Below are positions 1,405 through 36,025 of a stretch of DNA of 40,756 nt, piece after piece. Position 1 is the stretch's first letter. Every line of letters starts with the position of its first letter. A program made the position numbers and the translations under genes. This DNA comes from a bacterium. GTDB lineage: Bacteria > Patescibacteriota > Minisyncoccia > Minisyncoccales > JAUYFS01. Under the pieces are notes generated by a model, which saw nothing but the letters and a program-made list of their open reading frames with translations, had not been told where the DNA came from and made no database searches. The DNA lies in assembly GCA_030689665.1 (NCBI GenBank), contig JAUYFS010000002.1, positions 1 through 40,756 of the forward strand, read 5' to 3'.

Positions 1405-3663
1405 TCACAAACTTTTCCATTCGTTATTCTCATTATTTTCATTCTCATTATTTTCTTGGTTTTCTTGGACTTGTTCGTTTTCTAAACCAATTTCATCAAA
1501 ACCAATCAAAATTTCTCTTGGTTTTGCTCCGTCAGCAGGACCAACTATTCCTTTTTCCTCCAACATATCAATAAGGCGCGCTGCTCTTGCATAACCAACC
1601 CTTAAACGCCTTTGCAATAAAGATGAAGACGCTTTTTTTGATTCTATAACAATTCTTTTTGCTTCTTCAAATAACGGGTCATCTTCGTCAAATAAAATCC
1701 CTTCTTCTTTTTTTCTTTCCAAATCTTTTTCCAAATCTTTTTCCATAAAGTTTTGATTTTTTGTAGCCAAATCATCTCCCTTTTCATCAACTAATTTTTG
1801 ATACTCGTCTTTTATAAATTTGATAACATCTTTTGCTTCTTTTTCCGAAATAAGAGCGCCTTGAATTCTTTTTGGCTTGGTGAAATTTGTTGAAATAAAA
1901 AGCATGTCTCCCCTTCCCAGTAATTTATCAGCGCCAGCTATGTCTAAAATTGTCCTGGAATCAACTTGCGAAGCAACCTGAAAAGCTACCCTTGAAGTTA
2001 TGTTTGCTTTAATCAAACCAGTTAAAACCTCCACTGACGGCCTTTGGGTTGCCAAAACCAAATGGATTCCAACAGCGCGCGACATTTGGGCCAATCTCAC
2101 AATCACTGCTTCCAAATCCCTTCCCCTGGTACTCATCAAATCAGCCAGCTCATCAACCACTAAAACAATAAAAGGCATTAATGGCTCTTTCTTTTTTATC
2201 ATAATCGCATTATAGCCATTGATATTTCTGGCGCTTTCTTCCGACAAAATAGCAAATCTTTTTTCCATTTCTTTTACAAGCCAGTTTAAGGCATTTATCG
2301 CCCTTGAGGCATCGTGAATAACCGGAGTCAAAAGATGCGGAATTCCTTCATAAAAAGAAAATTCAACTCTTTTTGGGTCTATAAGAATCAAACGAAGCGT
2401 TTCCGGAGAATTCTTATAAAGCAAACTATTTATAAGCGTATTCAAAAAAATTGTTTTTCCGGAACCAGTGGCTCCTGCCACCAATAAATGAGGCATTTTT
2501 TCCATATCAGCAAAAAGCAAATCTCCGGCAACATCTTTTCCCAAAGATATTTTTAACAAAGAGTTGCTTTCTTGAAATTCCGGCGCCTCAATCAAAGACC
2601 TAATCATTACAGCGGCTCTTTTTGTGTTGGGAACTTCAATTCCAACCAATGATTTGCCGGGAATTGGCGCTTCAACCCTGATTGGATGAGCTGCTAGAGA
2701 TAGGGATAAATCATTGCTTAAAGCGGTTATTTTTGACAAACGAACTCCTTCAGCCGGCTTAAGAGTATATTGCGTCACTGTCGGACCGACAAAAACCTCT
2801 GCCATTTCAACCGGGATTCCAAAATTTTCCAAAGTTCTTTTTATAATTGCCGAATTGACCGCGATATCTCCGCTAGTTGGTTTATCTTTTTCTTTTTCCA
2901 ATAAATCTATTGGCGGAAGGGGAAATCCGATTTCTTTTTGCTGAGCCATTAATTTTTTCTGGAACATATCCTTTTCAGGGGTAATTTCTTCTTCGGTTTT
3001 TGCCTTTGTTAGCGCTGATTTTTTGTTTAAATTTATTTGCGGCAATTTTTCTTTAAAAAGAAGCTTTTCCACTTTTAATTCTTTAATTGGGGTTTCTTCT
3101 TCAAAAATTTCTTCTTCGTCTTCTTTTTCAAAAAATTCCACCTTATCCTTTAAAAATTGCCACAAAATAATAACTCCTGCAATTACAAAACCAATAAAAA
3201 TTAAATTAGCCAATAAAGACCCAAAAAATTTTGAAAAAAAAGCCGCCAAGAAATAGCCAACCCACCCTCCCATATTAAGCATAATTTCTTTGTTGGTTTC
3301 CGGATTTAAATTGCTTAACAATCCGGACAAACCCAAAACCAGCAAGGAAAATCCCGCCACAATGCCCTTAAAAGAGTTTCCTATTTTTATTGAAAGCGCA
3401 AAAAAACCGCCCAATAAAAAAATAATAGGTAAAACAAAATAAATTTTGCCGACAGCCAAAATAATGATTTTGGACAAATAAATTCCAACGATCCCGGCTT
3501 GCTCAAAAAAGGAGAAAATGATTGATATCGCCAACAAACCCAAAAGCAAGGCGATTATTTTCTTTTTAGTTTCAAAAGAAAAAATATCAGGGCCAAATTT
3601 CTTATTTTTTTTGCCATTAGAAGAATGGTTAAAAGAATTTTTATTTTTTCTTTTTCTCGCCAT
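1405..3663 (-). CDS. ftsK: DNA translocase FtsK/SpoIIIE
   Basis: 752 aa. N-terminal multi-TM region, Walker A GATGSGKT, Walker B VVDELADL, and a C-terminal gamma winged-helix segment SSLLQRRLRVGYARAARLIDMLEEKGIV. Confidence 0.93.
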   Translation of the reverse strand: MARKRKNKNSFNHSSNGKKNKKFGPDIFSFETKKKIIALLLGLLAISIIFSFFEQAGIVGIYLSKIIILAVGKIYFVLPIIFLLGGFFALSIKIGNSFKGIVAGFSLLVLGLSGLLSNLNPETNKEIMLNMGGWVGYFLAAFFSKFFGSLLANLIFIGFVIAGVIILWQFLKDKVEFFEKEDEEEIFEEETPIKELKVEKLLFKEKLPQINLNKKSALTKAKTEEEITPEKDMFQKKLMAQQKEIGFPLPPIDLLEKEKDKPTSGDIAVNSAIIKRTLENFGIPVEMAEVFVGPTVTQYTLKPAEGVRLSKITALSNDLSLSLAAHPIRVEAPIPGKSLVGIEVPNTKRAAVMIRSLIEAPEFQESNSLLKISLGKDVAGDLLFADMEKMPHLLVAGATGSGKTIFLNTLINSLLYKNSPETLRLILIDPKRVEFSFYEGIPHLLTPVIHDASRAINALNWLVKEMEKRFAILSEESARNINGYNAIMIKKKEPLMPFIVLVVDELADLMSTRGRDLEAVIVRLAQMSRAVGIHLVLATQRPSVEVLTGLIKANITSRVAFQVASQVDSRTILDIAGADKLLGRGDMLFISTNFTKPKRIQGALISEKEAKDVIKFIKDEYQKLVDEKGDDLATKNQNFMEKDLEKDLERKKEEGILFDEDDPLFEEAKRIVIESKKASSSLLQRRLRVGYARAARLIDMLEEKGIVGPADGAKPREILIGFDEIGLENEQVQENQENNENENNENNEWKSL

Positions 3664-3694
3664 TTGTTAAATTTTAACAGGAAATCTTTTTAAT

Positions 3695-6600
3695 TTACTC
3701 TTTCTTGGATTTGTTTTTTTTAAATCCAGTGCCTGCTAAAATCAGTTTACCAATAATAACATTTTCCTTCAAACCCCTTAAGGGGTCAACGCGTCCATCC
3801 AACGAGGCCTTGATTAAAACCCTTGAGGTTTGTTGGAATGAAGCTGCGGAAAGAAAACTATTCGTTGATAAGGAAACCCTGGAAATGCCCAAGAGAATCG
3901 GCTTTCCTTTTGCCGGAGTTTTGCCCTCTTTATTCAAACGGGCGTTTTCTTCTTCAAAAATAGGATTTTCAACAACCTCTCCCTGAGTCCATAATCCATC
4001 TCCCGGCTCGCTGATTTTTATTCTGGAAAACATCTGGCGAACAATGACCTCCACGTGTTTGTCGTGAATTTTTGCTCCCTGTGAAACATATATTTTTTGT
4101 ATTTCTTTTAGAATGTATCTCTGGGTTTTCTCTTCCCCGTTAATTTTAAAATATTTATCAAGGTCAACGTTCCCTTCTGTCAATTTCTGGCCAATAACAA
4201 TTTTTTCTCCGTTTTTAGCAAGAATTTTGCTCGTTGTTTTTATTTCAATAATTTCTTTTTTGTCTTTTTCGTCTTTTGTCTCAATTTTTATAATTCCATT
4301 GGTTTCGTCTATTTCCGAAATTTTTCCCTCAATGTCAGACAAAATTCCTTCAATTTTCGGATTTCTGTTTTCAAAAATTTCCTCAACTCTCGGCAAACCC
4401 TGGGTAATGTCGCTGGCACTCGCAACCCCGCCGGTGTGGAATGTTCTCATTGTCAGCTGGGTTCCCGGTTCTCCAATTGACTGCGCCGCGATAACGCCAA
4501 CCGCTTCCCCGCACTCAACTAATTTTGCTTTGCCCATATCCCAACCATAACATTTTTGGCAAACGCCTCTCAGTAATTTGCAACTTAATGGGCTTCTAAC
4601 CCTGATTTCCTGGATTGAATCGTCTTTTTTTATTTTATCCACAGAGTTCCAATCAATTAATTCGCCTTTTTTAACCAAAACATCGCCTTTGCTGTTTTTT
4701 ATTTCTTCCAAAACCACTCTTCCCAAAATTTTCATCGCAAAATCCTGGTTTAATTCATCCGCTTCTTTTTTGGAAATAACAATTCCTTTTTTATCTCCGC
4801 AGTCGTCTTCATAAACGATAAAATCATGGGCAACATCAACCAAGCGTCTGGTTAAATAACCTGCCATTGAAGTTCTTAAGGCGGTATCAACAGTGCCTTT
4901 TCTCGCCCCATGGGTGGAAATGAAATATTCCAAAACATCCAAACCCTCTTTAAAAGATCTTTTAACCGGCAATTCAATAATTTGGCCAGCCGGGTTGCTG
5001 ACCAACCCCTTCATTCCGGCCATCTGGGCCGGTTGAGACCAAGAACCCTTTGAACCTGAATCAATAATTGAAAAAACAGAGCCAAATTCAGACAATTTTT
5101 GCGGAACCAGTTTTTCCACCTCTGATTTTACTCTTTGCCAAACTTCAATAATATTTATTCTTTTTTCTTCCAAAGACAGCAATCCTTTTTGATAGTGAGT
5201 TTCAATTTTTTCAACTTCTTTTTCCGCTTCTTCAACGATTTTTTTCTTTTCTACCGGAATTACCAAGTCATCCATTCCCCAAGAAATTCCTGAAAGCGTT
5301 GCCGCTTCAACGCCTAATTCTTTAATATCGTCCAGATATTCCTGAGGTTCTTCAACTCCGGATTCCTCAACTCCGCAAATCTCAATAATTCGGCTGATTA
5401 TGCCCTCCATTTTCTTTGAATTTATGACATCGTTTATAAAATTCATTTGCTTGGGCAACACTTCGTTAAATAAAATTCTTCCGACAGAGGTTTCTATTAT
5501 TTCATTGTTAATCCTTACTTTAACCAAAGCTCTCGGGCTTACATGTTTTAAATCATGAGCCAAAATCGCTTCTTGCTCATTTGAAAAAATCTTGCCTTCG
5601 CCGATTTCTCCTTTTTTTATTTTGGTAAGCCAATAACAACCCAAAATAATGTCCTGGGTCGGCACGGTTATCGGAATTGCTGTTGCCGGTTTCAAAAGAT
5701 TTTTTGAAGAAAGCATTCTTTCCCCGGCTTCTTTTTGAGCCTCTTTGGATAAAGGCAAATGAACAGCCATTTGGTCGCCGTCAAAGTCAGCGTTAAATCC
5801 TTTACAAACCATTGGATGAACCCTTATTGCCTCGCCTTCAATTAATATCGGCCTGAATGCTTGAATTCCCAAACGATGAAGCGTTGGAGCGCGGTTTAAT
5901 AAAACATATTTTCCGGAAACAACTTCTTCCAAAATAGCCCAGACCTCGTCAGTTTGTTCGTCAATCAAACGGCTGGCGCCCTTCACATTATAAGCCAATT
6001 CCTTTTCAATAATTCCCCTGATGACAAACGGTTTAAATAATTCCAAGGCCATTTTCTTGGGCAAACCGCATTGGTCTAGTTTTAATTTCGGACCGACAAC
6101 AATTACCGAACGGCCCGAATAATCAACTCTTTTACCCAAAAGATTTTGCCTAAATCTGCCTTGTTTGCCCTGAAGCATGTCAGACAATGACTTCAAAACC
6201 CTTCTTCCCCCTGTCGTGGCGGTTGTGGTGCTTTTGCTTTTGCGCATTTTATTGTCAATCAAAGCGTCAACGGCTTCTTGAAGCATTCTTTTTTCGTTTC
6301 TAATAATAACTTCCGGAGATTTTATTTCTAAAAGATATTTTAATCTGTTATTTCTGTTTATAATTCTTCTGTAAAGGTCGTTTAAATCAGAAGAAGCGTA
6401 TCTTCCTCCGTCTAATTGAACAATCGGCCTCAAATCGGACGGTAAAATTGGAATGATTTCCAAAAACATCCATTCCGGCCTTATCCCAACCTTTATCATT
6501 CCCTGAATAAGTTTTAGGCGAATAAGCAATTTTTTTCTAGCTGCTGATTGAGTGTTTTTTATTTTTTCTTTTAATTCTTTAAAAAGTTCTTCTAAATTAA

Positions 6601-7381
6601 TTTTTTCAAATATTTTTCTTAAGGTTTCGGCGCCGGTTCCAGCGTCAAAAATTTCTCCAAACCTTAGCGACAAATCCTGATATTCCAGCTCTGAAATAAT
6701 TTTTAAGGGTTTAATCAGCTCAATTTCGGTCAACAATCTGTCTCTTGATTGGTCTAATTTTTCAATATTTTCATTGGTTTTTATTTTTTCGTTTTTCGCC
6801 CGCTTCGCCCGCGAATCGAGGCGAGCCCGCTTTTCCGAATCAAGATGAGCCCGCTTCGCCCCCGAATCAAGGCGAACTCTTTCTTTAATTTCAGCCGCTT
6901 TTCTTTTATATTCTTCTCCGATTTCTTTTATTTTTATTTCTTTTGCTTTTTCGTCCACCTCGGTAATAATGTAGTTTGAAAAATAAACGACTTTTTCAAC
7001 CTGCTGGGCGGGCGCGTCCAAAACCAAGGCAATTCTTGAAGGAACTCCTCTTAAAAACCAGATGTGGGCAACCGGAGCCGCTAATTTAATATGGCCCATT
7101 CTTTCTCTGCGGACAATTGATTTGGTAACTTCCACTCCGCACCTGTCGCAAATAATTCCCTTGTATCTTATTTTCCTGTATTTGCCGCAAGCGCACTCAT
7201 AATCTTTTTCCGGGCCAAAAATCCTTTCGCAAAACAAACCGTCTCTCTCAGACCTCTGAGTTCTATAATTTATCGTCTCTGGTTTAAGAACCTCGCCCTT
7301 TGACCATGATAAAATTTCATTTGGCGAAGCGATTTTTATTCTGATTGCCGTTATGTCTTGGGTTTTTAAATTTGGTTCCAT
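3695..7381 (-). CDS. rpoC: DNA-directed RNA polymerase subunit beta'
   Basis: 1228 aa. Contains the catalytic NADFDGDQM motif, an N-terminal Zn-binding cysteines segment (CACGKY...CDRCGVEV), and trigger-loop and bridge-helix regions. Confidence 0.97.
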   Translation of the reverse strand: MEPNLKTQDITAIRIKIASPNEILSWSKGEVLKPETINYRTQRSERDGLFCERIFGPEKDYECACGKYRKIRYKGIICDRCGVEVTKSIVRRERMGHIKLAAPVAHIWFLRGVPSRIALVLDAPAQQVEKVVYFSNYIITEVDEKAKEIKIKEIGEEYKRKAAEIKERVRLDSGAKRAHLDSEKRARLDSRAKRAKNEKIKTNENIEKLDQSRDRLLTEIELIKPLKIISELEYQDLSLRFGEIFDAGTGAETLRKIFEKINLEELFKELKEKIKNTQSAARKKLLIRLKLIQGMIKVGIRPEWMFLEIIPILPSDLRPIVQLDGGRYASSDLNDLYRRIINRNNRLKYLLEIKSPEVIIRNEKRMLQEAVDALIDNKMRKSKSTTTATTGGRRVLKSLSDMLQGKQGRFRQNLLGKRVDYSGRSVIVVGPKLKLDQCGLPKKMALELFKPFVIRGIIEKELAYNVKGASRLIDEQTDEVWAILEEVVSGKYVLLNRAPTLHRLGIQAFRPILIEGEAIRVHPMVCKGFNADFDGDQMAVHLPLSKEAQKEAGERMLSSKNLLKPATAIPITVPTQDIILGCYWLTKIKKGEIGEGKIFSNEQEAILAHDLKHVSPRALVKVRINNEIIETSVGRILFNEVLPKQMNFINDVINSKKMEGIISRIIEICGVEESGVEEPQEYLDDIKELGVEAATLSGISWGMDDLVIPVEKKKIVEEAEKEVEKIETHYQKGLLSLEEKRINIIEVWQRVKSEVEKLVPQKLSEFGSVFSIIDSGSKGSWSQPAQMAGMKGLVSNPAGQIIELPVKRSFKEGLDVLEYFISTHGARKGTVDTALRTSMAGYLTRRLVDVAHDFIVYEDDCGDKKGIVISKKEADELNQDFAMKILGRVVLEEIKNSKGDVLVKKGELIDWNSVDKIKKDDSIQEIRVRSPLSCKLLRGVCQKCYGWDMGKAKLVECGEAVGVIAAQSIGEPGTQLTMRTFHTGGVASASDITQGLPRVEEIFENRNPKIEGILSDIEGKISEIDETNGIIKIETKDEKDKKEIIEIKTTSKILAKNGEKIVIGQKLTEGNVDLDKYFKINGEEKTQRYILKEIQKIYVSQGAKIHDKHVEVIVRQMFSRIKISEPGDGLWTQGEVVENPIFEEENARLNKEGKTPAKGKPILLGISRVSLSTNSFLSAASFQQTSRVLIKASLDGRVDPLRGLKENVIIGKLILAGTGFKKNKSKKE
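6797..6877 (-). repeat. Three tandem GC-rich 24-27 nt units inside rpoC, encoding RLDSGAKRA / HLDSEKRA / RLDSRAKRA
   Basis: Plus strand reads cgcccgcttcgcccgcgaatcgaggcgagcccgcttttccgaatcaagatgagcccgcttcgcccccgaatcaaggcgaac. This is far more GC-rich than the surrounding gene. The same core (cgcccgcttcgcc..aatcgaggcgagccc) recurs in trxB at 15615..15644. Confidence 0.8.
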
Positions 7382-7389
7382 AGTTTTTT

Positions 7390-7504
7390 ACCCTCCCAAG
7401 TTTTTGACTTGGTTAAAAATGAATTATTGAAATATTAATTGTTGTTTGATTGTTTGAATTAGTTTTGTTAGTCATAATCGCCTTAGTCAAAAATTTGGGA
7501 GGGT
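7390..7504 (-). promoter_or_regulatory. Long-range hairpin in the rpoB-rpoC spacer; its 3' arm contains the rpoC Shine-Dalgarno sequence
   Basis: On the minus-strand RNA, ACCCTCCCAAATTTTTGAC (7504..7486) pairs with GTCAAAAACTTGGGAGGGT (7408..7390) at 18 of 19 positions around a loop of about 77 nt. The 3' arm is followed by AAAAAACT and then the rpoC ATG. Confidence 0.5.
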
Positions 7505-10910: not shown

Positions 10911-13900
10911 CTAGATGCAGACAGCCGAGGCAATCTGGTCTCCCGCCTTAAATTTCATAACTCTCACACCCCTCGCCATTCTTCCTAAAATTGAAATTGA
11001 TTTCAGTTCTGTTTTTATGACTTGCCCCTTTTTGGAAATAATAACCAAATCTTCTTCATTTTCTAAAATTTTGGCAAAAACTATTTCCCCTGTTTTTTCG
11101 TTAACCTTTAATGTGATAACGCCGGAACCGCCGCGCGACTGAATTCTGTAATTGCTTAATTTAACTTTTTTCCCAGACCCATTGCTTGTCAAAATCAAAA
11201 GATTTTCTTTTTGAATTTTTTCCTTGACAATATCCTGAATCGCCACCACCTCGTCATTGGGCGCCAATTTTATTCCTCGAACCCCGGAAGAAACCCTTCC
11301 CATAGTCCTGATTTCTTTTTCTTTAAACCTTATTGACTTGCCTTTTTTGGTAATTATTATCAATTCATCTCCCTTTTCAACCCTTACAACCTGCTTTAAT
11401 AAATCGTCCTTAAGCAATTTTATCGCTTTGATTCCGGTTCTCCTTACATTTTCAAAATCAATTTGCGCCGTTTTTTTGACAATGCCCTTTTTGGTCACCA
11501 TTGCCAAAAAACTGTCTGTTTCGCTTCCTTTTTTAACAGGAATCAAAGAAAGGACTTTTTCTTCAGGGCTAATCTCCAAAAAATTCATCAAACCCCTGCC
11601 CTTTGAAATTCTGCTGCCCTCAGGAATTTCATAGATATTTGTTTTAAACGCTTTTCCCGAATCCGTGAAAACCAACAAACTGTCTCTGGCTGAAGCCAAA
11701 GCAAAATGTTCCACCATGTCTTCTTCGCTGGTTTTCAAGCCAATCATACCCTTTCCGCCTCTTTTTTGAACTTTGTAGGTAGAAGGATTTATTCTTTTTA
11801 TGTAGCCGTCTTTGGTAAGAATAATAATCGTTTCTTCGTCAGGAATTAATTCCTCATCGCTTATTTCCCCGGCTTTTTGGCTTACAACTTTTGTTCTTCT
11901 CGGGCCGCCGTATTTTTCTTTTATTTCAAAAAGTTCGTCTTTCACCACTTTGTATATTTTTTTCTCGTTCTTCAAAATCTCCGTCCATTCTTTTATTTGT
12001 TTTAATTTCAATTCCAGCTCTTCCTTTATTTTTTCCCTTTCCAAGCGCGCCAAGCTCTGAAGTTTCATTTCCAAAATCGCATTGGATTGAATTTCGGTCA
12101 GTTTAAATTGTTTCATTAAATTAATCTTGGCATCGTCCCTGCTTTTTGACGCTTTTATGGTTTTGATAATCGCGTCTATTTTATTTAAGGCCTTGTCCAA
12201 ACCCTCTAAAATATGAACTCTTTCTTTGGCTTTGTTTAATTCATATTGAATTCTTCTGGTTATAACTTCCTTCCTGTGAGAAATAAAAAATGAAAGCGCT
12301 TCTTTTAAAGACAAAACCCTCGGCTGGATTCCATCAACCAAAGCCAGCAAATTAAGGTGAAAATTTTTCTGAAGGTCAGTGTATTTGTAAAAACTGTTTA
12401 AAATTCTTTGGGGCAATGCCTCTGGTTTCAATTCAATCATTATTCTCATTCCGTCTTTATCTGATTCGTCTCTTATGTCTTTTATTCCTTGCAGTTTTTT
12501 GTTTTCAACCAATTTTGCCATTTGCTCCAACAAACCGCTTTTTTCCACTTGAAAAGGAATTTCGGAAATTATAATTTGCTGGCGTCCTGTTTTCGTTTCT
12601 TCTACTTCCGCCTTTCCTCTCATTAATATCGGACCCTTGCCCTGAGAAAACGCTTTGATGATTTCTTTTTTATCAAAAATAAACCCGCCTGTCGGAAAAT
12701 CAGGACCTTGAACGAATTTAAATAAATCTTCGGTAGTGGCTTCCGGATTATCAATTAGAAAAGAAGTGGCGTCAACCAATTCGCTCAAATTATGGGGCGG
12801 AATATTGGTCGCCATTCCAACGGCAATTCCAGTAGCGCCGTTCAAAAGAAGCCCGGGAACAGCGGCAGGCAAAACAATCGGCTCTTTTCTTGTAGCGTCA
12901 TAATTGTCCCTAAAATCAACTGTTTCTTTCGCTATGTCTTTTAAAAGTTCTTCGCCAACCTTGGAAAGTTTTGCTTCGGTATAACGCTGCGCTGCCGGAG
13001 GGTCTCCGTCAATTGAATTATGCGCGAAAATACCAGCGCTTAAAGCAAAATTATGAGTGCCTTCTATTGTTAAATCATAAACATCTGCCGATTCCCCTAA
13101 AAATTCTTTTCTTGAAACTTTGTGGTTTCCATTAATGCTGCACAATAAATAATTAATGTCATTATTATAATATTTTTTAATTCCTAGGTCCCAACCGGTA
13201 AAACTCTTTATTTTAAAAATTGCCTTCCTGATATTTTCATAATTTTCTTTATCCAAAGACAAATTATTATCCTTTAAATAGTGGCATATCTTTTCAAACT
13301 TCTTTCTGCCCGTTAAATTTGTCTCTCTTTTCTTATTTGAATTAACTATCTTTTCGTGAAAAAACTGTTTATATTCAGGAATCCCCCAAAGCCTTTTTAG
13401 GGTAGCCGACGCTCGCTTGCTTATTTCTTTTATCTTTTCTGGATGTAATTCCAAATATCTTTTTGTGCTTTCCCTCAACATCTCAACCATTTTCTCCCTG
13501 TATTCCTGCTTTTCCCAATTTTTACGGTTCCTTAACGACAATCTTTCGGCATAGGATTTCCTATTTTTTAAATCCTCCCAAAACAGTTTTCTTCCCAATG
13601 CAAGCTTTTCTCTATATTCTTTGTCTGTCTTGTGTTTTTCGGATATAAAATTGTAATGGGTTTGCCAATGTTCTTTCCAATCCATTCTAGCTATATTTTC
13701 TGGATTATTGTTTAGTTTATTAAAATCCAGATGATGCCTTATCCTGCCCTTTTTTCTTTCATAAACTTTGTTTAATATATTATATTCATCTGATAAAATG
13801 TGGATAAAATCCCAAAGATTTGAAGACTGTTGAAAAACCATGGTATAACCATTCATATTGGGATCATCTTCCCTGGTTGAACTTCTAAAATAGCAGGGCA

Positions 13901-14555
13901 TTAACGAATCTCCTTTTTCCAGATTTTTTGCCTCTCTGTATTCCCCGTTCTTTAACATGAATTTATGATCCAGCGTACATTTAATTTCCTCACCATTGTC
14001 CAAAACTATTTTCATTATTTCCGCATACTTTGTTTTCCTTGGATATTTTATTTCCGCAATTTTAATTTTTCCGTCGCTATCAACAGTAAAAGTATAATTT
14101 TTCTTGCCTTGTTTATGTTCTTCTATCAGCTCTAAAAAAGACGCGTCTCTTCCGTCGGTTAGTTTAACCTTAGTTTCACCCGTAAAACAACCAAAATTTC
14201 CTTGGCCAATAATCAAAGGATATCTCATTGAAAAATCCTGCGCCATTCTAACCAATGCTTCATAAACAGACGCGTCCCCGTGAGGATGATACTTTCCCAA
14301 AACATCACCGGTAACAGCCGCTGATTTTCTGAATTTAGCGGACGAAGCCAAGCCCATATCGTGCATCGCGAAAAGAATTCTTCTGTGAACCGGTTTTAGC
14401 CCGTCTCTGACATCAGGCAAGGCGCGGGAAACGATAACGCTCATCGCGTAATCCAAGTAAGAATCTTTCATCTCTTTCACGATTTCAACTTGCTGGATTT
14501 GAGAATCTATATTTTGTTTGATATTTTTTATATCCTCTTCTTTTTCTTTTGGCAT
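10911..14555 (-). CDS. gyrA: DNA gyrase subunit A, interrupted by an in-frame intein (exteins about 823 aa)
   Basis: 1214 aa. N-extein reads ...GKYHPHGDASVYEALVRMAQDFSMRYPLIIGQGNFG. C-extein reads SIDGDPPAAQRYTEAKL... with the catalytic Tyr in QRYTE. C-terminal beta-pinwheel repeats are present. Confidence 0.95.
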   Translation of the reverse strand: MPKEKEEDIKNIKQNIDSQIQQVEIVKEMKDSYLDYAMSVIVSRALPDVRDGLKPVHRRILFAMHDMGLASSAKFRKSAAVTGDVLGKYHPHGDASVYEALVRMAQDFSMRYPLIIGQGNFGCFTGETKVKLTDGRDASFLELIEEHKQGKKNYTFTVDSDGKIKIAEIKYPRKTKYAEIMKIVLDNGEEIKCTLDHKFMLKNGEYREAKNLEKGDSLMPCYFRSSTREDDPNMNGYTMVFQQSSNLWDFIHILSDEYNILNKVYERKKGRIRHHLDFNKLNNNPENIARMDWKEHWQTHYNFISEKHKTDKEYREKLALGRKLFWEDLKNRKSYAERLSLRNRKNWEKQEYREKMVEMLRESTKRYLELHPEKIKEISKRASATLKRLWGIPEYKQFFHEKIVNSNKKRETNLTGRKKFEKICHYLKDNNLSLDKENYENIRKAIFKIKSFTGWDLGIKKYYNNDINYLLCSINGNHKVSRKEFLGESADVYDLTIEGTHNFALSAGIFAHNSIDGDPPAAQRYTEAKLSKVGEELLKDIAKETVDFRDNYDATRKEPIVLPAAVPGLLLNGATGIAVGMATNIPPHNLSELVDATSFLIDNPEATTEDLFKFVQGPDFPTGGFIFDKKEIIKAFSQGKGPILMRGKAEVEETKTGRQQIIISEIPFQVEKSGLLEQMAKLVENKKLQGIKDIRDESDKDGMRIMIELKPEALPQRILNSFYKYTDLQKNFHLNLLALVDGIQPRVLSLKEALSFFISHRKEVITRRIQYELNKAKERVHILEGLDKALNKIDAIIKTIKASKSRDDAKINLMKQFKLTEIQSNAILEMKLQSLARLEREKIKEELELKLKQIKEWTEILKNEKKIYKVVKDELFEIKEKYGGPRRTKVVSQKAGEISDEELIPDEETIIILTKDGYIKRINPSTYKVQKRGGKGMIGLKTSEEDMVEHFALASARDSLLVFTDSGKAFKTNIYEIPEGSRISKGRGLMNFLEISPEEKVLSLIPVKKGSETDSFLAMVTKKGIVKKTAQIDFENVRRTGIKAIKLLKDDLLKQVVRVEKGDELIIITKKGKSIRFKEKEIRTMGRVSSGVRGIKLAPNDEVVAIQDIVKEKIQKENLLILTSNGSGKKVKLSNYRIQSRGGSGVITLKVNEKTGEIVFAKILENEEDLVIISKKGQVIKTELKSISILGRMARGVRVMKFKAGDQIASAVCI
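13017..14189 (-). mobile_element. GyrA intein (391 aa) with an HNH-type homing endonuclease insert
   Basis: Starts with Cys (CFTGETKVKL, TGT at 14189..14187). Block B is CTLDHKF. C-terminal blocks are VYDLTIEGTHNFALSAGIFAHN, with the Asn codon at 13019..13017 followed by Ser+1. The central HNH signature is IRHHLDFNKLNNNPENIARMDWKEHWQTH. No LAGLIDADG motifs were seen. Confidence 0.87.
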
Positions 14556-15217: not shown

Positions 15218-15225
15218 GATTTTTT

Positions 15226-15270
15226 ACCCTGTTAAATAATTTCGCTGAAAGCGAAATTATTTAACAGGGT
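15226..15270 (-). promoter_or_regulatory. Perfect 20-bp hairpin ending 8 nt upstream of the MBL-hydrolase start codon
   Basis: Minus strand reads ACCCTGTTAAATAATTTCGC-TTTCA-GCGAAATTATTTAACAGGGT, followed by AAAAAATC and ATG. There is no U-tract on either strand. Its ends (AAATTCACCCT ... AGGGTAAAAAA) match the hairpins at 7390..7504 and 35916..36025. Confidence 0.55.
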
Positions 15271-15313
15271 GAATTTAAATTACCCCACAAGAAATGGAGC
15301 AAGGTTTAATTTA

Positions 15314-16264
15314 TTATACACTATTTTCTAAAAATTTATAAATAGACAAAGTTGCCGACGCTCCCTGCCCAGCGGCAATGATTATCTGTTTAAAAGGAAA
15401 ATCAATAACATCACCTGCCGCAAACAAACCAGGTGTTTTCGTCTGAAAATTTGATAAATCAACTTTTATTTCTCCCCTTTCATTATAATCAGCCAAATCA
15501 CCGACAAAAAAACTTGTCGGGATATAGCCAATTTCCACAAAAATGCCGTCAATTTCTATTTCTTCCAATTCTTTTTTCAGTTTGTTTTCAAAAACAATTG
15601 ATTTCACAAATTTTCCGCCCGCTTCGCCAAATCGAGGCGAGCCCTTGATTTCTTTAATTTCAGAATTGATTATGGTTATAACGCCTTTTTCTTTTGCCTG
15701 TTCTTGAACCGATTCATCTGCCCTTGGTTTATCACTGCCTTCAAAAACATAAACCTTTGAGCAATAGCTAACAAGCCATAAAGCAGCGCTAAAACCGGAA
15801 TTTCCTCCGCCAATCACTCCGACTTTTTTATTTTTAAAAAGAGGGCCATCGCAAGTGACGCAATAAGAAACGCCTTTGCCCAAAAATTCTTTTTCTCCTT
15901 TGACATTTAAAATTCTTGGCTTGCTGCCAGAGGCGATTAAAACTGCTTTTGATTTAAAAATTTCCTTTTCGTTGTCAGTTAATTCAAAACCGCCATTTTT
16001 CTTTTCAATTTTGGTTATTTCTCTTTCTAGCGGTTTTATTTGAAATTTTTTAAGATGTTCAAAAAATTTTTCTACCAGCTCTGATCCGGATATTTCCAAA
16101 AATCCCGGATAATTTTCAATTAAAATCGCCCTGCTTGCCAAACCTCCCTTTTCAGAACCAATTAGTAAAAAATCCATGTTTTTTCTGAAAGCGTAAATCG
16201 CGGCTGATATTCCAGCCGGTCCTGTACCAACAATAATTAAATCATACACTTTTTGGTTTTCCAT
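15314..16264 (-). CDS. trxB: Thioredoxin-disulfide reductase
   Basis: FAD motif DLIIVGTGPAGISAAIY, redox-active CVTC, NADPH motif GVIGGGNSG, and C-terminal GLFAAGDV. I place the start at Met18 of the tracked ORF (MENQKVYDLIIVG, ATG at 16264). The tracked extension to 16315 runs through a repeat motif cluster. Confidence 0.9.
   Translation of the reverse strand: MENQKVYDLIIVGTGPAGISAAIYAFRKNMDFLLIGSEKGGLASRAILIENYPGFLEISGSELVEKFFEHLKKFQIKPLEREITKIEKKNGGFELTDNEKEIFKSKAVLIASGSKPRILNVKGEKEFLGKGVSYCVTCDGPLFKNKKVGVIGGGNSGFSAALWLVSYCSKVYVFEGSDKPRADESVQEQAKEKGVITIINSEIKEIKGSPRFGEAGGKFVKSIVFENKLKKELEEIEIDGIFVEIGYIPTSFFVGDLADYNERGEIKVDLSNFQTKTPGLFAAGDVIDFPFKQIIIAAGQGASATLSIYKFLENSV
15615..15644 (-). 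repeat. GC-rich hairpin element copy inside trxB, encoding SPRFGEAGG
   Basis: Plus strand ccgcccgcttcgccaaatcgaggcgagccc shares 13 + 15 identical nt with the rpoC unit at 6797..6829. It is read in a different frame: TCG CCT CGA TTT GGC GAA GCG in trxB versus CGC CTC GAT TCG CGG GCG AAG in rpoC. Confidence 0.7.
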
Positions 16265-16300
16265 ATTTTTAAAAATCATAAAATTTTGACTTTTGACTTT

Positions 16301-16334
16301 TGTTTCATGCTTCATGTTTTATGTTTCATGTTTT
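16301..16334 (-). promoter_or_regulatory. Cluster of CATGAAAC / CATGAAGC octamers upstream of trxB
   Basis: Minus strand reads AAACATGAAACATAAAACATGAAGCATGAAACA, overlapping the galU stop. A similar cluster lies upstream of prfB at 30273..30303. Confidence 0.3.
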
Positions 16335-24643: not shown

Positions 24644-24722
24644 TTTTTAAATTTTTTATTAATTTTTTCTTCAACTTCGCCTCGCCCGTGGTCGGGCTAC
24701 GGCCAAGGGGCCTAATTTTTGA

Positions 24723-25266: not shown

Positions 25267-25560
25267 TTAATTCCTTTGCCCGGTAGTAGAGCCGCCGAAG
25301 GCGGCTCTACTACCGGGGTTCGACTTTTTCTTTGGTTGAGATTCTAATATCTTTTCCATGGGACAAAATCCCTTTAAACTTTTGTGGGAAAAATAATTCC
25401 AGGTATCGTTAGCAATTTCAAGTATCCGATTTAATTCTTCAATGCCTTGTCCTCTATCAAAAATTGAAACAACCCTCATTAAATCGTCACTATCCTTTTC
25501 ATGGTAAATAATATCTTTTATGTGTTCTATCGTGAAAGGACTATTGATTTCTTTCAACAT
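25267..25560 (-). CDS. Hypothetical small protein (97 aa as tracked); its C-terminal tail is encoded by a GC-rich palindrome
   Basis: ATG start 27 nt downstream of the TPR gene stop. The last 17 residues (PGSRAAFGGSTTGQRN) are translated from the palindrome at 25279..25317. Confidence 0.5.
   Translation of the reverse strand: MLKEINSPFTIEHIKDIIYHEKDSDDLMRVVSIFDRGQGIEELNRILEIANDTWNYFSHKSLKGFCPMEKILESQPKKKSNPGSRAAFGGSTTGQRN
25279..25317. repeat. Perfect 18-bp-stem GC-rich palindrome
   Basis: cccggtagtagagccgcc-gaa-ggcggctctactaccggg. It is a GC-rich island in AT-rich surroundings. Confidence 0.85.
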
Positions 25561-26307: not shown

Positions 26308-26359
26308 ATTTTTTTAATTATGACATGCGTTTCAGTTACCTGGCTTAGTATGTGTTGGC

Positions 26360-26506
26360 TGCGGGACTAGGCCACCTTCGCCAAGGCTACGGCGAGCCAA
26401 GGGATTCGAAGGTGTTGCCCTTGTCCGCCTCCATTTTTACAAATTTCGGCGGGATAAAGCGTATTTTGCTTCGCAAAATACGGGGGCTAGGTTCTCGCCA
26501 CAGTCC
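26360..26506. repeat. Direct repeat copy A (147 bp), downstream of the NYN gene and upstream of the TPR gene
   Basis: Identical to 27367..27514 except for two substitutions and a 1-nt indel, all within gttgcccttgtcc versus gttactctttgtcc. GC-rich, with several internal helices. Confidence 0.92.
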
Positions 26507-26620: not shown

Positions 26621-27175
26621 TTAAAAGATTAACCTTTCAAAGAAAGATTGCCTCGCCCTTCTTGGAATATCTGCTAATCTTAAAAGAGAATTAGATATGA
26701 ATCCCCTAAAATACACGATCTCTATTTTTTTACCAAATATGTTCTTGGTTGGATCTAGGGCGCTAACATAGTCTCTATCATTAGAAACAAGAATTGCGGT
26801 ATCAAAGGTATTCTGGGCAGCTAAAGAAATCATATTTGCTGTAAGTTGTGTATCTAGGTTTTTTTCCTTAAGTTCTCTCCCAGCTCCTTGTAAATTACCA
26901 AATTTTACCTCAACTCCAGATAATTTTTGTATCTCGGCGTAGTATTGTGTTTGAATTGAGTATTTCTTTTTACTATCTGCGGTTTTTAACATCTGGGATG
27001 GCGGCGGAGTACAGTAGAAAAAAACAGCCACTAAGTTTCTATCACCAGTTAATTTTTGAGCAAGTTTTAATGGATTATAAAGACAAATCCATTTTTTATC
27101 GATCTTTTTCAGTTCACTTAAATATTTATAAACATTGGAATTATCTATAAATACTGCAACTCGTGTTGAATTCAT
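26621..27175 (-). CDS. NYN-domain (LabA/DUF88-like) putative ribonuclease
   Basis: Starts MNSTRVAVFIDNSNVYKYL (N-terminal Asp motif). Contains ...EKNLDTQL...DTAILVSNDRDYV, matching the NYN acidic-residue pattern. I place the start at the ATG at 27175; the tracked extension to 27229 reads through a terminator hairpin. Confidence 0.8.
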   Translation of the reverse strand: MNSTRVAVFIDNSNVYKYLSELKKIDKKWICLYNPLKLAQKLTGDRNLVAVFFYCTPPPSQMLKTADSKKKYSIQTQYYAEIQKLSGVEVKFGNLQGAGRELKEKNLDTQLTANMISLAAQNTFDTAILVSNDRDYVSALDPTKNIFGKKIEIVYFRGFISNSLLRLADIPRRARQSFFERLIF

Positions 27176-27199
27176 ATTTTCATTATACTTGTATAAGCA

Positions 27200-27270
27200 T
27201 AAAAAACAAATGGCGGCTGTCGCCGCCATTCGTTAGCTTGTCATAACCGAAGCTATAACAAGGATTTAAT
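27200..27270 (-). ncRNA. Leader or small RNA: UUCG-capped hairpin plus intrinsic terminator, immediately upstream of the NYN gene
   Basis: Minus strand has CTTGTTATAGC-TTCG-GTTATGACAAG (27262..27237). Its two G-U pairs are valid only on the minus strand. This is followed by CTAACGA, then ATGGCGGC-GACA-GCCGCCAT (27229..27210) and TTGTTTTTT. Confidence 0.45.
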
Positions 27271-27305: not shown

Positions 27306-27366
27306 GAGCATTGTCAACTCTTGTCGGTTATTTCGTTTATTCTTTGTCAAATCCTGTCAACTTTGT

Positions 27367-27514
27367 TGCGGGACTAGGCCACCTTCGCCAAGGCTACGGC
27401 GAGCCAAGGGATTCGAAGGTGTTACTCTTTGTCCGCCTCCATTTTTACAAATTTCGGCGGGATAAAGCGTATTTTGCTTCGCAAAATACGGGGGCTAGGT
27501 TCTCGCCACAGTCC
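27367..27514. repeat. Direct repeat copy B (148 bp), between tRNA-Gln and the NYN promoter region
   Basis: See copy A. Its promoter-proximal end (CCTAGTCCCGCA on the minus strand) matches 11 of the last 12 nt of the adjacent tRNA-Gln (CCTAGTCCGGCA). Confidence 0.92.
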
Positions 27515-29234: not shown

Positions 29235-30252
29235 TTATAATTTTATCTCAGTTGCAATGAATTTGTCCAAGTCGCCGTCCAAAACCAAATCTAATTGCCT
29301 GTTCTCAACCTTTGTTCTGTGATCTTTTACCAGTTGGTAAGGATGAAAAACATATGACCTTATCTGCTGGCCCCAAGTTGCCGCGCTCTTGCCCTTCATT
29401 TTTAACAGTTCTTTTTCTTTTTTTTCTTCTTCAGTTTGCAGCAATTTTGCTTTCAAAATTTTCAGCGCTCTTTCTTTGTTCGCTCCCTGGCTTCTCTCAT
29501 TTTGACAACTGACCACGATTCCTGTCAGCAAATGAACTATTCTGATTGCGCTTTCCCTTTTATTCACGTATTGACCGCCAGGCCCTGATGCTCTGAAGGT
29601 GTCAATTCTTAAATCATCGGGCTTTATTTCCACATTTTTCACATCTCCTAAGTCCGGAATTACCTCCACTGACGCAAAAGAGGTGTGCCTTAATTTTTTG
29701 GCTGAAAACGGCGAAATCCTTACTAATCTATGAACCCCTGCCTCGCCTTTTAAAATACCGTAGGCAAAATTCCCCCTTACTTCAAAAATTATATTTTTTC
29801 TTCCAACCCTGTCCTCAACTCGCGCTTCGGTAAAAGTTTCGTCTAAAACCCTGTATTTAAATCCTTTTTTTTCAAAAAATCTGCTGAACATCCGCGTTAA
29901 AATTGAAACCCAATCTTCCGCGTCTTGGCCGCCGGTTCCTGATTTAATTGTCAAAAAAGCATTTTCTCTGTCAAATTTTTTGCGCAAATAAAAATAAATT
30001 TCCTGCTCTTTAATTTCCTTGTTTAATTTTTCAATTTTTTCGCCAATTTCTAATTTTATTCCCTCGTCCTTATCCGCTAATTCGAAAATTTCTTCAATTA
30101 ATTCGCTTTCTTTTTGCCAATTATTTAGATAATCAACAAGAATTTTGCTTTGAAAGTCGTTTTTTTCAATTCTTTCAATGTCAAAGACACTGGTTTAATT
30201 GTCCCAAATGGTTTTTCAAATCTATGATTTTTTGCGATAAATCTTTTTCCAT
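29235..30252 (-). CDS. prfB: Peptide chain release factor 2, requiring a programmed +1 frameshift
   Basis: The ATG at 30252 opens MEKDLSQKIIDLKNHLGQLNQCL, followed by an in-frame TGA (30183..30181) in the canonical context CTT TGA C. The +1 frame continues DIERIEKNDF... into tracked ORF 29235..29987, which carries the SPF (RISPFSA) and GGQ (SGPGGQYVNK) motifs. Confidence 0.92.
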
Positions 30253-30272
30253 AGTTTTAAATTTGGCTTCTG

Positions 30273-30303
30273 TGCTTCATGTTTCATGCCTTGTTTCATG
30301 TCC
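30273..30303 (-). promoter_or_regulatory. Cluster of CATGAAAC / CATGAAGC octamers upstream of prfB
   Basis: Minus strand reads GGACATGAAACAAGGCATGAAACATGAAGCA, ending 21 nt upstream of the prfB ATG. Compare 16301..16334. Confidence 0.3.
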
Positions 30304-30380
30304 TGCATTTCTTTTTGAGCCGAGGAGAGGAATTGAACCCCCAACCACTCCGATAAGCGCAAGCGCTATCGGAGTGATCT

Positions 30381-30496
30381 GCTTCTCCCGCCAAGTTTTG
30401 CCAGAGCCAGCGGTCGGGGTCGAACCGACGACCTACGGTTTACGATACCGTTGCTCTACCGGCTGAGCTACGCTGGCAAAACTTGGCGGGAGAAGC
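30381..30496. repeat. Perfect 24-bp inverted repeat flanking, and overlapping by 5 nt, tRNA-Thr
   Basis: gcttctcccgccaagttttgccag (30381..30404) is the exact reverse complement of ctggcaaaacttggcgggagaagc (30473..30496). The latter includes the first 5 nt of the tRNA. Confidence 0.93.
30405..30477 (-). tRNA. tRNA-Thr (anticodon CGT)
   Basis: GCCAGCG TA GCTC AGCCGGTA GAGC A ACGGT ATCGTAA ACCGT AGGTC GTCGG TTCGACC CCGAC CGCTGGC T. All four stems are fully paired. No encoded CCA. Confidence 0.93.
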
Positions 30497-30608
30497 TGCC
30501 GCCCCGTTTTACGGGGCGAGCCTCGCCCTTTTAAGGCGGAAGCTACCTTGGCGGTGCGGGATATGGGAATCGGATTGTGCTTGGTCCCGTAACAATTTTG
30601 CTCAGTTC

Positions 30609-34973: not shown

Positions 34974-35002
34974 ATAATACAATTACTGAATAATATTGTC
35001 AA
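34974..35002 (-). promoter_or_regulatory. Sigma70-type promoter for rnpB, overlapping the ppaC stop codon
   Basis: Minus strand has TTGACA (35002..34997), a 17-nt spacer, then TATTAT (34979..34974). Confidence 0.5.
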
Positions 35003-35907
35003 GATTTAAAATACTCGTCCAGGGGCGGAATAATTTGTTTTTTGCGCGACATCATTCCGTCAATCCAAGCTGATTTTTCTTTTAATTTTATATTGAAAAT
35101 TTTCTCAATTTTTTCCTCTTGGCCTTCAATAAAAAATTCGCTTCCCTCTTTCAAAATATCAGTTGCCGCGAAAATCAAACAATCATAACCTTTTTCTTGT
35201 TTCACTTGTTCCATTGCCGTGTTTATTTCCAATTTCCTTTCTTTTAAAAATGCCTCTATCCCAACAATTTCAATTTGGCCTATGCCAAATTTTTTGGCGC
35301 CAAAAATAAATTCCTTAAAATCCCTTAAAATCAATTCTTTTGCCGGTTTGTCCAAATCCATTCCCGCTTGTTTAATTTCTTTGCCAAATTTTTCCAAGTC
35401 AAAATTCAATTTTTTGTTTAATTTCTCTGCTGTTTTTTTGTCTTTTTCAGTTGTTGTCGGAGATTTAAAAATAACAGTGTCTGAAAGAATTGAACAAAGC
35501 AAAATACCGGCAATGTTGTCGGGAATTTCCATATTTTCGCTGAAAAATTTTTCCGCAATTATTGTTGCCGTGGAACCAACCGCTTCTGAAATGAAATTTA
35601 TCGGCTCTGGATAGGAAAAATTGATTTTGTGATGGTCTATAACTTCAATTATTTTCGGGCTGCCGTCAATTATTTGTTCTTTTTCATTATGGTCAACCAA
35701 AACCAGTTGTTTTCCGTCAGCGTTTTCCAATAATTCCGGTTCCGGAAAACCGAATTTTTCCAGAACAAATTTTGTTTCCGGATTAATATCGCCGGCGCGA
35801 GCTGGTTTAACTTCCCAACCACTTTTTTCCTTTAAAAAATAAGTAAGGGCTATTGCAGAACAGATTGAATCAGTATCCGGGTTTTTGTGGCCTATTATGT
35901 AAATCAT
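34999..35907 (-). CDS. ppaC: Manganese-dependent inorganic pyrophosphatase (family II, DHH)
   Basis: 302 aa. MIYIIGHKNPDTDSICSAIA, the DHH motif VIDHHK, and C-terminal SRKKQIIP. Confidence 0.9.
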   Translation of the reverse strand: MIYIIGHKNPDTDSICSAIALTYFLKEKSGWEVKPARAGDINPETKFVLEKFGFPEPELLENADGKQLVLVDHNEKEQIIDGSPKIIEVIDHHKINFSYPEPINFISEAVGSTATIIAEKFFSENMEIPDNIAGILLCSILSDTVIFKSPTTTEKDKKTAEKLNKKLNFDLEKFGKEIKQAGMDLDKPAKELILRDFKEFIFGAKKFGIGQIEIVGIEAFLKERKLEINTAMEQVKQEKGYDCLIFAATDILKEGSEFFIEGQEEKIEKIFNIKLKEKSAWIDGMMSRKKQIIPPLDEYFKS

Positions 35908-35915
35908 AGTTTTTT

Positions 35916-36025
35916 ACCCTCCCAAATTTTTGTTTTTTCCAAAAAAGAAAGGGTGAATTTAATTTTTTTTAATTTTGGCATCGCCCCGCAATTTTGACTT
36001 GTATAAGTCAAAAACTTGGGAGGGT
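35916..36025 (-). promoter_or_regulatory. Composite hairpin upstream of ppaC; the SD arm has two alternative anti-SD partners
   Basis: Minus strand: ACCCTCCCAAGTTTTTGAC (36025..36007, inside the end of rnhA) pairs with the 3' arm CAAAAATTTGGGAGGGT (35932..35916). A second AAATTCACCCTTTC copy lies at about 35965..35952. A local hairpin TTTTGACTT-ATAC-AAGTCAAAA (36013..35992) competes for part of the distal arm. The 3' arm is followed by AAAAAACT and ATG. Confidence 0.45.

Follow-up and report, generated by a model that had tools for sequence, protein, structure and literature searches.

A tiny GC-rich palindromic repeat arrayed in frame in rpoC of a Patescibacteriota genome and recurring in many other genomes

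Why would an essential gene of an AT-rich bacterium carry a GC-rich tandem array within its reading frame? We addressed this question for rpoC, encoding the RNA polymerase beta' subunit, in contig JAUYFS010000002.1 of a member of the Patescibacteriota (assembly GCA_030689665.1; the whole stretch of 40,756 nt that was analyzed is called the window below). A preliminary description, made from the letters of the window, had interpreted the array as a repeat at the level of the DNA whose in-frame insertions persist in essential genes. Our analysis supports this interpretation, the decisive support coming from other genomes and not from the non-coding DNA of the window. We consider it likely that the block is an array of three copies of a tiny GC-rich imperfect palindrome, a selfish mini-element of the same kind as repetitive extragenic palindromic sequences (REPs), mitochondrial GC clusters and the small dispersed repeats (SDRs) of cyanobacteria.

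The inserted block in rpoC

The window has a GC content of 36%, and nearly all of its genes lie on the minus strand. Relatives are given below as labelled proteins (P0001...) and DNA loci (L001...), all sequences being metagenome assemblies; open reading frames are abbreviated as ORFs, and the covariance model of the element was built from 67 copies. The features of the rpoC locus are the following.

3695..7381, minus strand: rpoC, RNA polymerase beta', 1228 aa (ORF and translation; all five Rpb1 Pfam domains)
6798..6875, plus strand (forward orientation of the element): inserted block of 78 nt, three head-to-tail units (Tandem Repeats Finder; gapless insertion relative to L002 and L004)
6798..6824, plus strand: unit A, 27 nt, GCCCGCTTCGCCCGCGAATCGAGGCGA (covariance model match 6798-6826, 44.7 bits, E 1.5e-9)
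6825..6848, plus strand: unit B, 24 nt, GCCCGCTTTTCCGAATCAAGATGA (register of the array and 19/24 identity to the canonical 24-mer)
6849..6875, plus strand: unit C, 27 nt, GCCCGCTTCGCCCCCGAATCAAGGCGA (covariance model match 6849-6877, 36.0 bits, E 3.4e-7)

The in-frame block of three tandem 24-27 nt units noticed earlier was recovered by Tandem Repeats Finder at 6798-6875 (period 27, 3.0 copies, 70% matches) and by translation. Its GC content is ∼65% against 36% for the window. On the minus strand the block adds ∼26 codons (residues ∼169-195, with an alignment boundary ambiguous by +/-2 nt), and the RpoC translation across it reads ...KERVRLDSGAKRAHLDSEKRARLDSRAKRAKNEK..., in which the units appear as VRLDSGAKRA, HLDSEKRA and RLDSRAKRA, in agreement with the peptides first read there. 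The nearest relatives of this RpoC are proteins from Patescibacteria metagenome bins (Parcubacteria, Nealsonbacteria-like), and its best matches among solved structures are the beta' subunits of E. coli and M. tuberculosis.

The first 330 residues were aligned with 40 relatives. The block is missing from the orthologs P0002 (90% identity), P0003 (80%) and P0004 (74%), which run directly from ...AEIKE to RTKNEK... with no block residues, and the rpoC DNA of L002 and L004 aligns on both sides of one clean 78-nt gap. Among all indels over ∼18 kb of compared synteny, the only GC-rich coding ones are the rpoC block and the trxB copy described below. A search with the 30-aa block found no protein homolog among 1.84 billion representative proteins, a result limited in power by the short query; hence a homologous peptide at this position was seen neither in the relatives nor in that collection, and the observation that would have refuted the preliminary interpretation was not made. 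The rpoC insertion is a DNA-level event that took place after the split from the 90%-identical relative.

The three units are unequally preserved. Unit A has no changes, and its core CCGCTTCGCCCGCGAATCGAGGCGA exactly matches a 27-nt variant of three other genomes (L006, L013, L070). Unit C is 93% identical to unit A, with two to three changes, among them G-to-A changes in its 3' arm. Unit B carries five changes from the canonical 24-mer (four C-to-T or G-to-A transitions and one G-to-T), was missed by the covariance model at E<=10, and is a decayed copy of that 24-mer. The decay of B and C consists mainly of C-to-T and G-to-A changes. The core CTTCGCC-N7-10-GGCGAGCC, previously attributed to every unit, is exact in unit A and degenerate in units B and C. 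Since the middle unit is of the 24-nt type with five changes and its flanks are of the 27-nt type with fewer, the array probably did not originate from one burst of slippage.

A second copy in trxB

The same DNA is present, in another reading frame, in a second gene of the window.

15314..16315, minus strand: trxB, thioredoxin-disulfide reductase (translation; Pyr_redox Pfam matches on orthologs; names of homologs)
15617..15640, plus strand: single 24-nt copy, GCCCGCTTCGCCAAATCGAGGCGA (24-nt insertion relative to L004)

The gene as called encodes 316 aa within an open frame of 333 aa. This copy is the top covariance model match in the window (15617-15642, 46.3 bits, E 5.3e-10) and is translated as SPRFGEAG, in a frame one nucleotide off that of the rpoC copies, as the preliminary description had recognized. 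One DNA sequence is thus read in two frames, and therefore conservation at the peptide level is ruled out. TrxB orthologs at 84, 72 and 67% identity (P0242, P0244, P0245) have nothing at the insertion site. In L002, trxB contains 54 nt at the same place: both arms are kept and 30 nt more are nested in the loop, these being a second, similar unit read as ...ARLDSELKR.... The sequence GCCC is repeated at the trxB junction (microhomology), and no repeat is seen at the rpoC junction.

Position of the insert on beta'

The part of beta' that received the block was mapped by alignment and modeling.

6707..6958, minus strand: beta' helical hairpin, residues 142-225 (phmmer against PDB chains; AlphaFold2 model)

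Residues 4-141 and 226-329 of the window protein align to E. coli beta', and residues 142-225 replace E. coli residues 149-156. The hairpin segment aligns with M. tuberculosis beta' 130-270 (phmmer, PDB chains), which we take to be an actinobacterial lineage-specific coiled-coil insertion, and which is presumably a structured element of the mycobacterial enzyme. The AlphaFold2 model, made for the first 330 residues, is of poor quality overall (mean predicted local distance difference test score, pLDDT, 55); only the hairpin stretch was used, where confidence is moderate to good (62-86) and a helix (144-174), a loop (175-185) and a second helix (186-221) are predicted. Because residues ∼169-195 span the predicted helix ends and the turn between them, we place the insert at the hairpin tip, where the added residues would form the turn and the distal ends of both helices.

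This location falls in a lineage-variable part of beta', as initially proposed. Among 120 RpoC relatives (P0001-P0120) the tip segment, corresponding to window residues ∼150-222, is 34-81 residues long, and many of the inserts in it are low-complexity and rich in K, S, P and Q, which suggests repeated small DNA insertions at one site. Other GC-rich sequences are found at the tip in three lineages whose DNA was inspected, L126 (a palindrome of the second family described below), L127 (a different hairpin) and L125 (a degenerate look-alike of the element). Since its length varies among relatives and three lineages carry other GC-rich sequences there, the tip is a permissive spot that repeatedly gathers such inserts.

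It could be argued that selection favored the RLDSxAKRA repeats as a positively charged helical extension with a role in transcription, the likeness at the DNA level being secondary: the block is in frame, lengthens the helical hairpin and is retained in an essential gene. However, the orthologs at 90, 80 and 74% identity lack the extension, and peptide homologs were not found. In trxB and elsewhere the same DNA is read in other frames, the hypervariable tip (34-81 residues) holds unrelated GC-rich inserts in other lineages, and unit B is decaying by AT-biased substitutions. An adaptive peptide is therefore a very improbable explanation of the block.

Distribution of the element in other genomes

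We scanned the GTDB representatives (one genome per species, 596 Gb) with the pattern CCGCTTCGCC-N0-6-AATCRAGGCGA. At least 120 exact sites were found versus ∼4 expected by chance, an expectation that is higher in GC-rich and lower in AT-rich genomes; the motif is over-represented outside the window. About 12 of the listed matches lie in GC-rich genomes and have odd spacers, and look like chance background. The remaining listed matches come from genomes of 31-50% GC and nearly all have the form (G/A)C-CCGCTTCGCC-G-AATCGAGGCGA-G(C/T). Because nearly all non-background matches share this one form, and the positions left free by the pattern are also almost invariant among the listed matches, we take the canonical element to be the 24-mer CCCGCTTCGCCGAATCGAGGCGAG. 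Its arms, CCCGCTTCG and CGAGGCGAG, are conserved around a short variable middle and are inverted-complementary at 7/9 positions. Allowing up to one mismatch per arm and a free middle gives elements of 19-54 nt, most of them 21, 24, 27 or 30 nt; arrays and nested composites are among them. Tandem arrays occur in rpoC of the window, L032 and L105.

Among the matches listed, about half of 80 records are Patescibacteria of many classes; other labels include Gammaproteobacteria, Bacteroidota/Ignavibacteriales, Pirellulales, Nitrospirales, Bdellovibrionales, Omnitrophota, Thermodesulfovibrionia and more (taxon labels are mostly those of the records, and copies were counted per locus). The element is absent from 651 kb of Parcubacteria loci chosen through FtsX, and loci with one known copy contain 25 further copies in 763 kb; its distribution is patchy but multi-copy. 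The GC-rich 13-mers common to the window and the carrier loci are those of the element alone, plus a chance half-match at 7319-7331 in the part of rpoC encoding the N-terminus. The element has no Rfam match at gathering score or E-value thresholds in the window and eight carrier loci, and we found no description of it in Rfam or the searchable literature, where the searches used its DNA sequence, the peptides of its six frames and the sister palindrome.

An assembly or sequencing artifact, that is, a chimeric join or a foreign oligonucleotide, has to be considered here, as all sequences are metagenome assemblies and L001, the other assembly in which the rpoC block occurs, matches the window at 100% identity over 6.4 kb, so that both may derive from the same reads. 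However, the insertions of 78 nt in rpoC and of 24 and 54 nt in trxB all preserve the reading frame, a different sample and project (L002, JGI) also has the trxB copy, carrier assemblies come from many projects and assemblers and include a 929-kb record deposited as a chromosome (L029), and decayed and nested variants exist. In light of these observations an artifact is scarcely credible.

Copies inside genes

Of 133 copies, 66 lie within ORFs that span 150 codons or more and extend for 20 or more to either side of the copy, and their orientation relative to the host ORF is 33:33. The peptides of all six frames (ARFAESRR, PASPNRGE, PLRRIEAS, RLDSAKRA, LASIRRSG, SPRFGEAG) were found in other genomes. 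The hosts are real genes: clear Pfam domains were detected in 19 of the 20 host ORFs tested, and the confirmed hosts include IleRS, ValRS (valyl-tRNA synthetase), GluRS, GatA, RecG, a UvrD-like helicase, PBP2, two RpoD and PGK. Within these proteins the inserts reside in tolerant parts, often in linkers or where the protein exceeds the length of the profile. All five simple variants with a length not divisible by three lie outside long ORFs, and about half of the variants with 3n length lie inside; with n=5, this points weakly to a selection filter that keeps non-3n variants out of ORFs.

Nesting and a second palindrome family

Many copies of the 24-mer are carried by a CCTGCCTGCCGG/CAGGCAGG palindrome at its apex. 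A nested copy verified in another phylum is that in ValRS of L035. This protein shares 93% identity with ValRS from genomes of Ignavibacteriales and Melioribacteraceae, in one instance encoded on a 1.69-Mb contig. At the insertion site most relatives read ...KDS-NEFV..., P0124 has seven extra residues, NPPAGKA, and L035 has NPPAG-PLRRIEAS-EAG. At the DNA level the site is empty in L209, holds a 21-nt palindrome, CCCGCCTGCCGGTAAGGCAGG, in L208, and in L035 holds the same palindrome with the 24-mer in its loop. The Ignavibacteriales ValRS genes form a stepwise series from empty through single to nested.

The outer palindrome of this series belongs to a second mini-palindrome family, CCTGCCTGCCGGCAGGCAGG (∼21 nt), which recurs across genomes labelled as different phyla (loci L019, L021, L022, L071, L085, L097-L099, L126 at 2616-6293, L208, L035 and others) and flanks many copies of the 24-mer, holding them in its loop. 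In-frame members of this family are present in L126, where the rpoC tip reads LPGRQAG, and at two ValRS sites of Ignavibacteriales, the second of which has 7-residue inserts of the family in several relatives. New copies thus land beside existing ones, giving arrays, or in the loops of existing mini-palindromes, giving nested composites.

Origin and copying of the element

The element inserts at the DNA level, independently of frame and orientation, recurs in many genomes, and forms arrays and loop nests. We infer that it is selfish and non-autonomous, being copied by machinery supplied in trans; at this size it seems to rank among the smallest selfish DNA elements known. The most plausible machinery would be an enzyme handling single-stranded DNA hairpins, as the size and palindromic form fit such enzymes in the way that REP-associated tyrosine transposases (RAYTs) act on REPs (PMC3733652, PMC3116915). 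The arms are the probable recognized part, since they are conserved and the middle is free. The element would have crossed between lineages horizontally, and its persistence in genes may be due to its length of 8 or 9 whole codons and its lack of stops, with only copies at tolerant surface positions surviving selection. In rpoC, the array would lengthen a tolerant hairpin tip by ∼26 residues without a dedicated function.

Several observations weigh against this reading, in addition to the possibly shared reads of the second rpoC assembly. All-against-all clustering of the 798 ORFs within 8-kb slices around the copies gave housekeeping families and one Fic/DOC-domain family, and no recurrent family resembling a transposase. 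In the loci examined, there is no long-range pair of arms flanking a gene. A clear target-site duplication is also lacking (GCCC at trxB, nothing at rpoC), and the flanking dinucleotides of the copies do not covary. The core had been called hairpin-capable; the arms are indeed 7/9 complementary, but the hairpin is weak, ∼-5.4 kcal/mol as DNA, and no better than those of shuffles (z ∼-0.4). Strand bias relative to GC skew is not significant (40:25, p = 0.08) and therefore gives no support for a single-strand mechanism at the replication fork. Freedom from stops in six frames follows from the GC-rich composition and is shared by 43% of shuffles; it permits residence in coding sequence and is no evidence of design. 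The Ignavibacteriales are the sole non-Patescibacteria host verified independently of the record label. Finally, no vector for horizontal spread is identified, since 2.9 million viral contigs contain 0 matches, and plasmids and phages of cultured hosts give only chance partial matches, in GC-rich replicons.

In an alternative view, no dedicated machinery is involved. The GC-rich mini-palindromes could be copied as short patches through ectopic gene conversion, or through template switching in the course of replication or repair, with microhomology or hairpins as the seed, and the arrays could grow by slippage. This would be in line with the absence of a transposase near any copy, the GCCC microhomology at the trxB junction, the clustering of copies next to or within other GC-rich palindromes, which are expected sites of template switching, and the tandem arrays in rpoC, L032 and L105; the GC clusters of yeast are conversion hot spots (PMC8811140). 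However, the AT-rich target sites in rpoC and ValRS are not homologous to the element, horizontal transfer and efficient copying would still be needed for the 24-mer to be nearly identical across phyla, and a single burst of slippage does not fit unit B, a 24-nt unit that has decayed further than the 27-nt units around it. We regard this route as unlikely, yet as a serious competitor to the selfish element copied in trans, which we favor.

A bolder version, which we advance only tentatively and lean against, is that horizontally spreading mini-elements of eight codons, the smallest mobile DNA seen in bacteria, reside in essential genes across phyla, nest with CCTGCCTGCCGGCAGGCAGG and are copied by a possibly ubiquitous host activity instead of a dedicated transposase. 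If true, core proteins such as beta', sigma-70 and aminoacyl-tRNA synthetases would steadily gain new surface loops from them. Five properties stand out together: 24 nt is exactly eight codons, half of the copies are intragenic and many of these genes are essential, nearly the same sequence occurs across labelled phyla, the virus, phage and plasmid collections lack the element apart from chance matches, and neither Rfam nor any paper found by sequence records it. If mobile, the element would set a lower size limit for selfish DNA, sharpen the question of what copies it, and explain part of the lineage-specific loop insertions by which core proteins of AT-rich, uncultured bacteria are marked. 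Protein alignments and trees can be misled by such inserts, which are also convenient as markers of recent divergence.

Non-coding candidate sites and other features of the window

The pattern CTTCGCC-N6-12-GGCGA occurs 5 times in the window versus 0.03 expected, and non-coding copies of the element had been suggested at 26379, 27386, 30513 and 24675. None of these was matched by the covariance model at E<=10, which in the window finds only the outer rpoC units and the trxB unit, and we rejected the non-coding sites as copies.

The sites at 26379 and 27386 are the stem of a conserved structured RNA of ∼150 nt, present on the minus strand as two direct copies (26355-26506 and 27362-27514; 94-100% identical) that flank an ORF with a NYN domain (26621-27229) and have no Rfam match. 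One copy of this RNA lies next to tRNA-Gln in each of L128, L129 and L130. In relatives its stem CTTCGCC...GGCGAG is changed to CTTTGCT...GGCAAG with pairing kept, and the RNAalifold consensus has 34 pairs, 8 of them with a compensatory change. Because of these compensatory substitutions, the CTTCGCC stem is part of a conserved RNA and not a recent insertion. The site at 30513 lies in an insertion of 42 nt and 64% GC relative to L128 (30500-30541, CGCCCCGTTTTACGGGGCGAGCCTCGCCCTTTTAAGGCGGAA), which has small hairpins and a sequence unlike the rpoC element; it may be another GC-rich mini-element. For the site at 24675-24712, also unmatched by the model, the relatives obtained lack the corresponding stretch. 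The GC-rich intergenic hairpins 25278-25318 and 24672-24714, one of which is a near-perfect 41-nt palindrome, GCCCGGTAGTAGAGCCGCCGAAGGCGGCTCTACTACCGGGG, are both within 3 kb missing from L129 and L130.

Near the 42-nt insertion, a perfect 24-nt inverted repeat (30381-30404 and 30473-30496) frames an intact tRNA-Thr(CGT) at 30404-30477 (region 30290-30600), which seems to lie within an older tRNA-Thr gene that has been disrupted. In L129 the tRNA-Thr is single and ordinary; L128 shows a similar tRNA-within-tRNA arrangement. In prfB (29235-30263), a short frame upstream stops at CTT TGA C on the minus strand (30197-30191, a site read by eye), and the 250-aa ORF is without the N-terminal part of the PCRF domain; the gene appears to use the classical +1 programmed frameshift.

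Other insertions were seen relative to L002, L004 or both. Between rpoB and rpoC there is a 120-nt insertion (7383-7502; the spacing is 12 nt in L002) bounded by a 23-nt inverted repeat, the downstream arm of which holds the rpoC ribosome-binding site (RBS), GGGAGGG. The same anti-RBS/RBS architecture is found upstream of ORF 34999-35907 (35905-36042). A perfect 24-bp hairpin over the RBS of a metallo-beta-lactamase-fold gene (15223-15273) is absent in L002 and L004. In gyrA (10911-14555), a 1173-nt in-frame insertion (13016-14188) is absent from L002; it is probably an intein, because the L004 ortholog is similar in length and has an Intein_splicing Pfam match. Finally, an insertion of ∼850 nt between recA and ftsK (642-1500, relative to L002 and L004) contains a PsbP-like ORF (672-1337).

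Comparison with known small repeats

The element resembles REPs and their inverted doublets (REPINs) in being a short (20-40 nt), dispersed, GC-rich imperfect palindrome of the sort taken as miniature non-autonomous mobile DNA. Some REP families are found in several species, and the element is found in many genomes. REPs are defined by a conserved unpaired GTAG or CGTC tag at one end (PMC3733652), and can lie inside known genes (Di Nocera et al. 2013, PMC3733652); they are also insertion targets for other elements (work cited in PMC3116915). In contrast, the 26-nt consensus of the element and its complement have neither GTAG nor CGTC, copies are head-to-tail or nested instead of forming inverted doublets as in REPINs, 66 of 133 copies are intragenic, whereas REPs lie mostly downstream of genes, nearly identical copies occur in genomes labelled as different phyla, and no RAYT recurs among the 798 ORFs in the 8-kb slices around the copies. 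The conserved 9-nt arms, 7/9 complementary, recall the terminal inverted repeats of miniature inverted-repeat transposable elements, in imperfect form.

The GC clusters of yeast and fungal mitochondria are short GC-rich palindromes of an AT-rich genome, with in-frame insertions in var1, tandem arrays, merging and shuffling (PMC8811140). They have shared termini around variable middles, AG/TAG terminal repeats taken as target duplications, and an unknown mobilizing activity; in Magnusiomyces, GC-cluster inserts in genes are bypassed in translation (PMC8811140). The element is likewise a GC-rich palindrome in an AT-rich genome, with arrays, merging and in-frame insertions in genes. It differs in residing in bacterial genomes and lacking AG/TAG repeats at its junctions, whereas the clusters are mitochondrial and usually longer; it is thus no member of the mitochondrial family. 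As the inserts have lengths in whole codons, they are suggested to be translated.

The likeness to Rickettsia palindromic elements (RPEs), pointed out at the outset together with the much shorter length, holds for the in-frame insertions in rpoC, trxB, ValRS and 18 other Pfam-confirmed hosts. RPEs also reside in essential genes, at sites compatible with protein function. Passages of PMC3184786 describe them as selfish palindromic repeats of ∼105-146 nt, in frame in protein-coding genes (Ogata et al. 2000). They are confined to Rickettsia, whereas the element, of 24-27 nt, occurs in Patescibacteria, Ignavibacteriales and others.

The cyanobacterial SDRs are the subject of Elhai et al. 2008 (Genome Res 18:1484), a paper cited in PMC3116915. 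They are reportedly palindromic dispersed repeats of 21-27 nt that were argued to be mobile, are often nested and have no known transposase. By this description, the element is like them in size (21-27 nt), in being a dispersed palindrome and in mutual nesting; it differs in that SDR families are reportedly those of heterocyst-forming cyanobacteria. To our knowledge, frequent in-frame residence in essential genes across phyla is no hallmark of SDRs. Overall, the element behaves most like GC clusters and SDRs. While we found no description of its sequence, its kind is already known: small palindromic repeats that can sit in genes.

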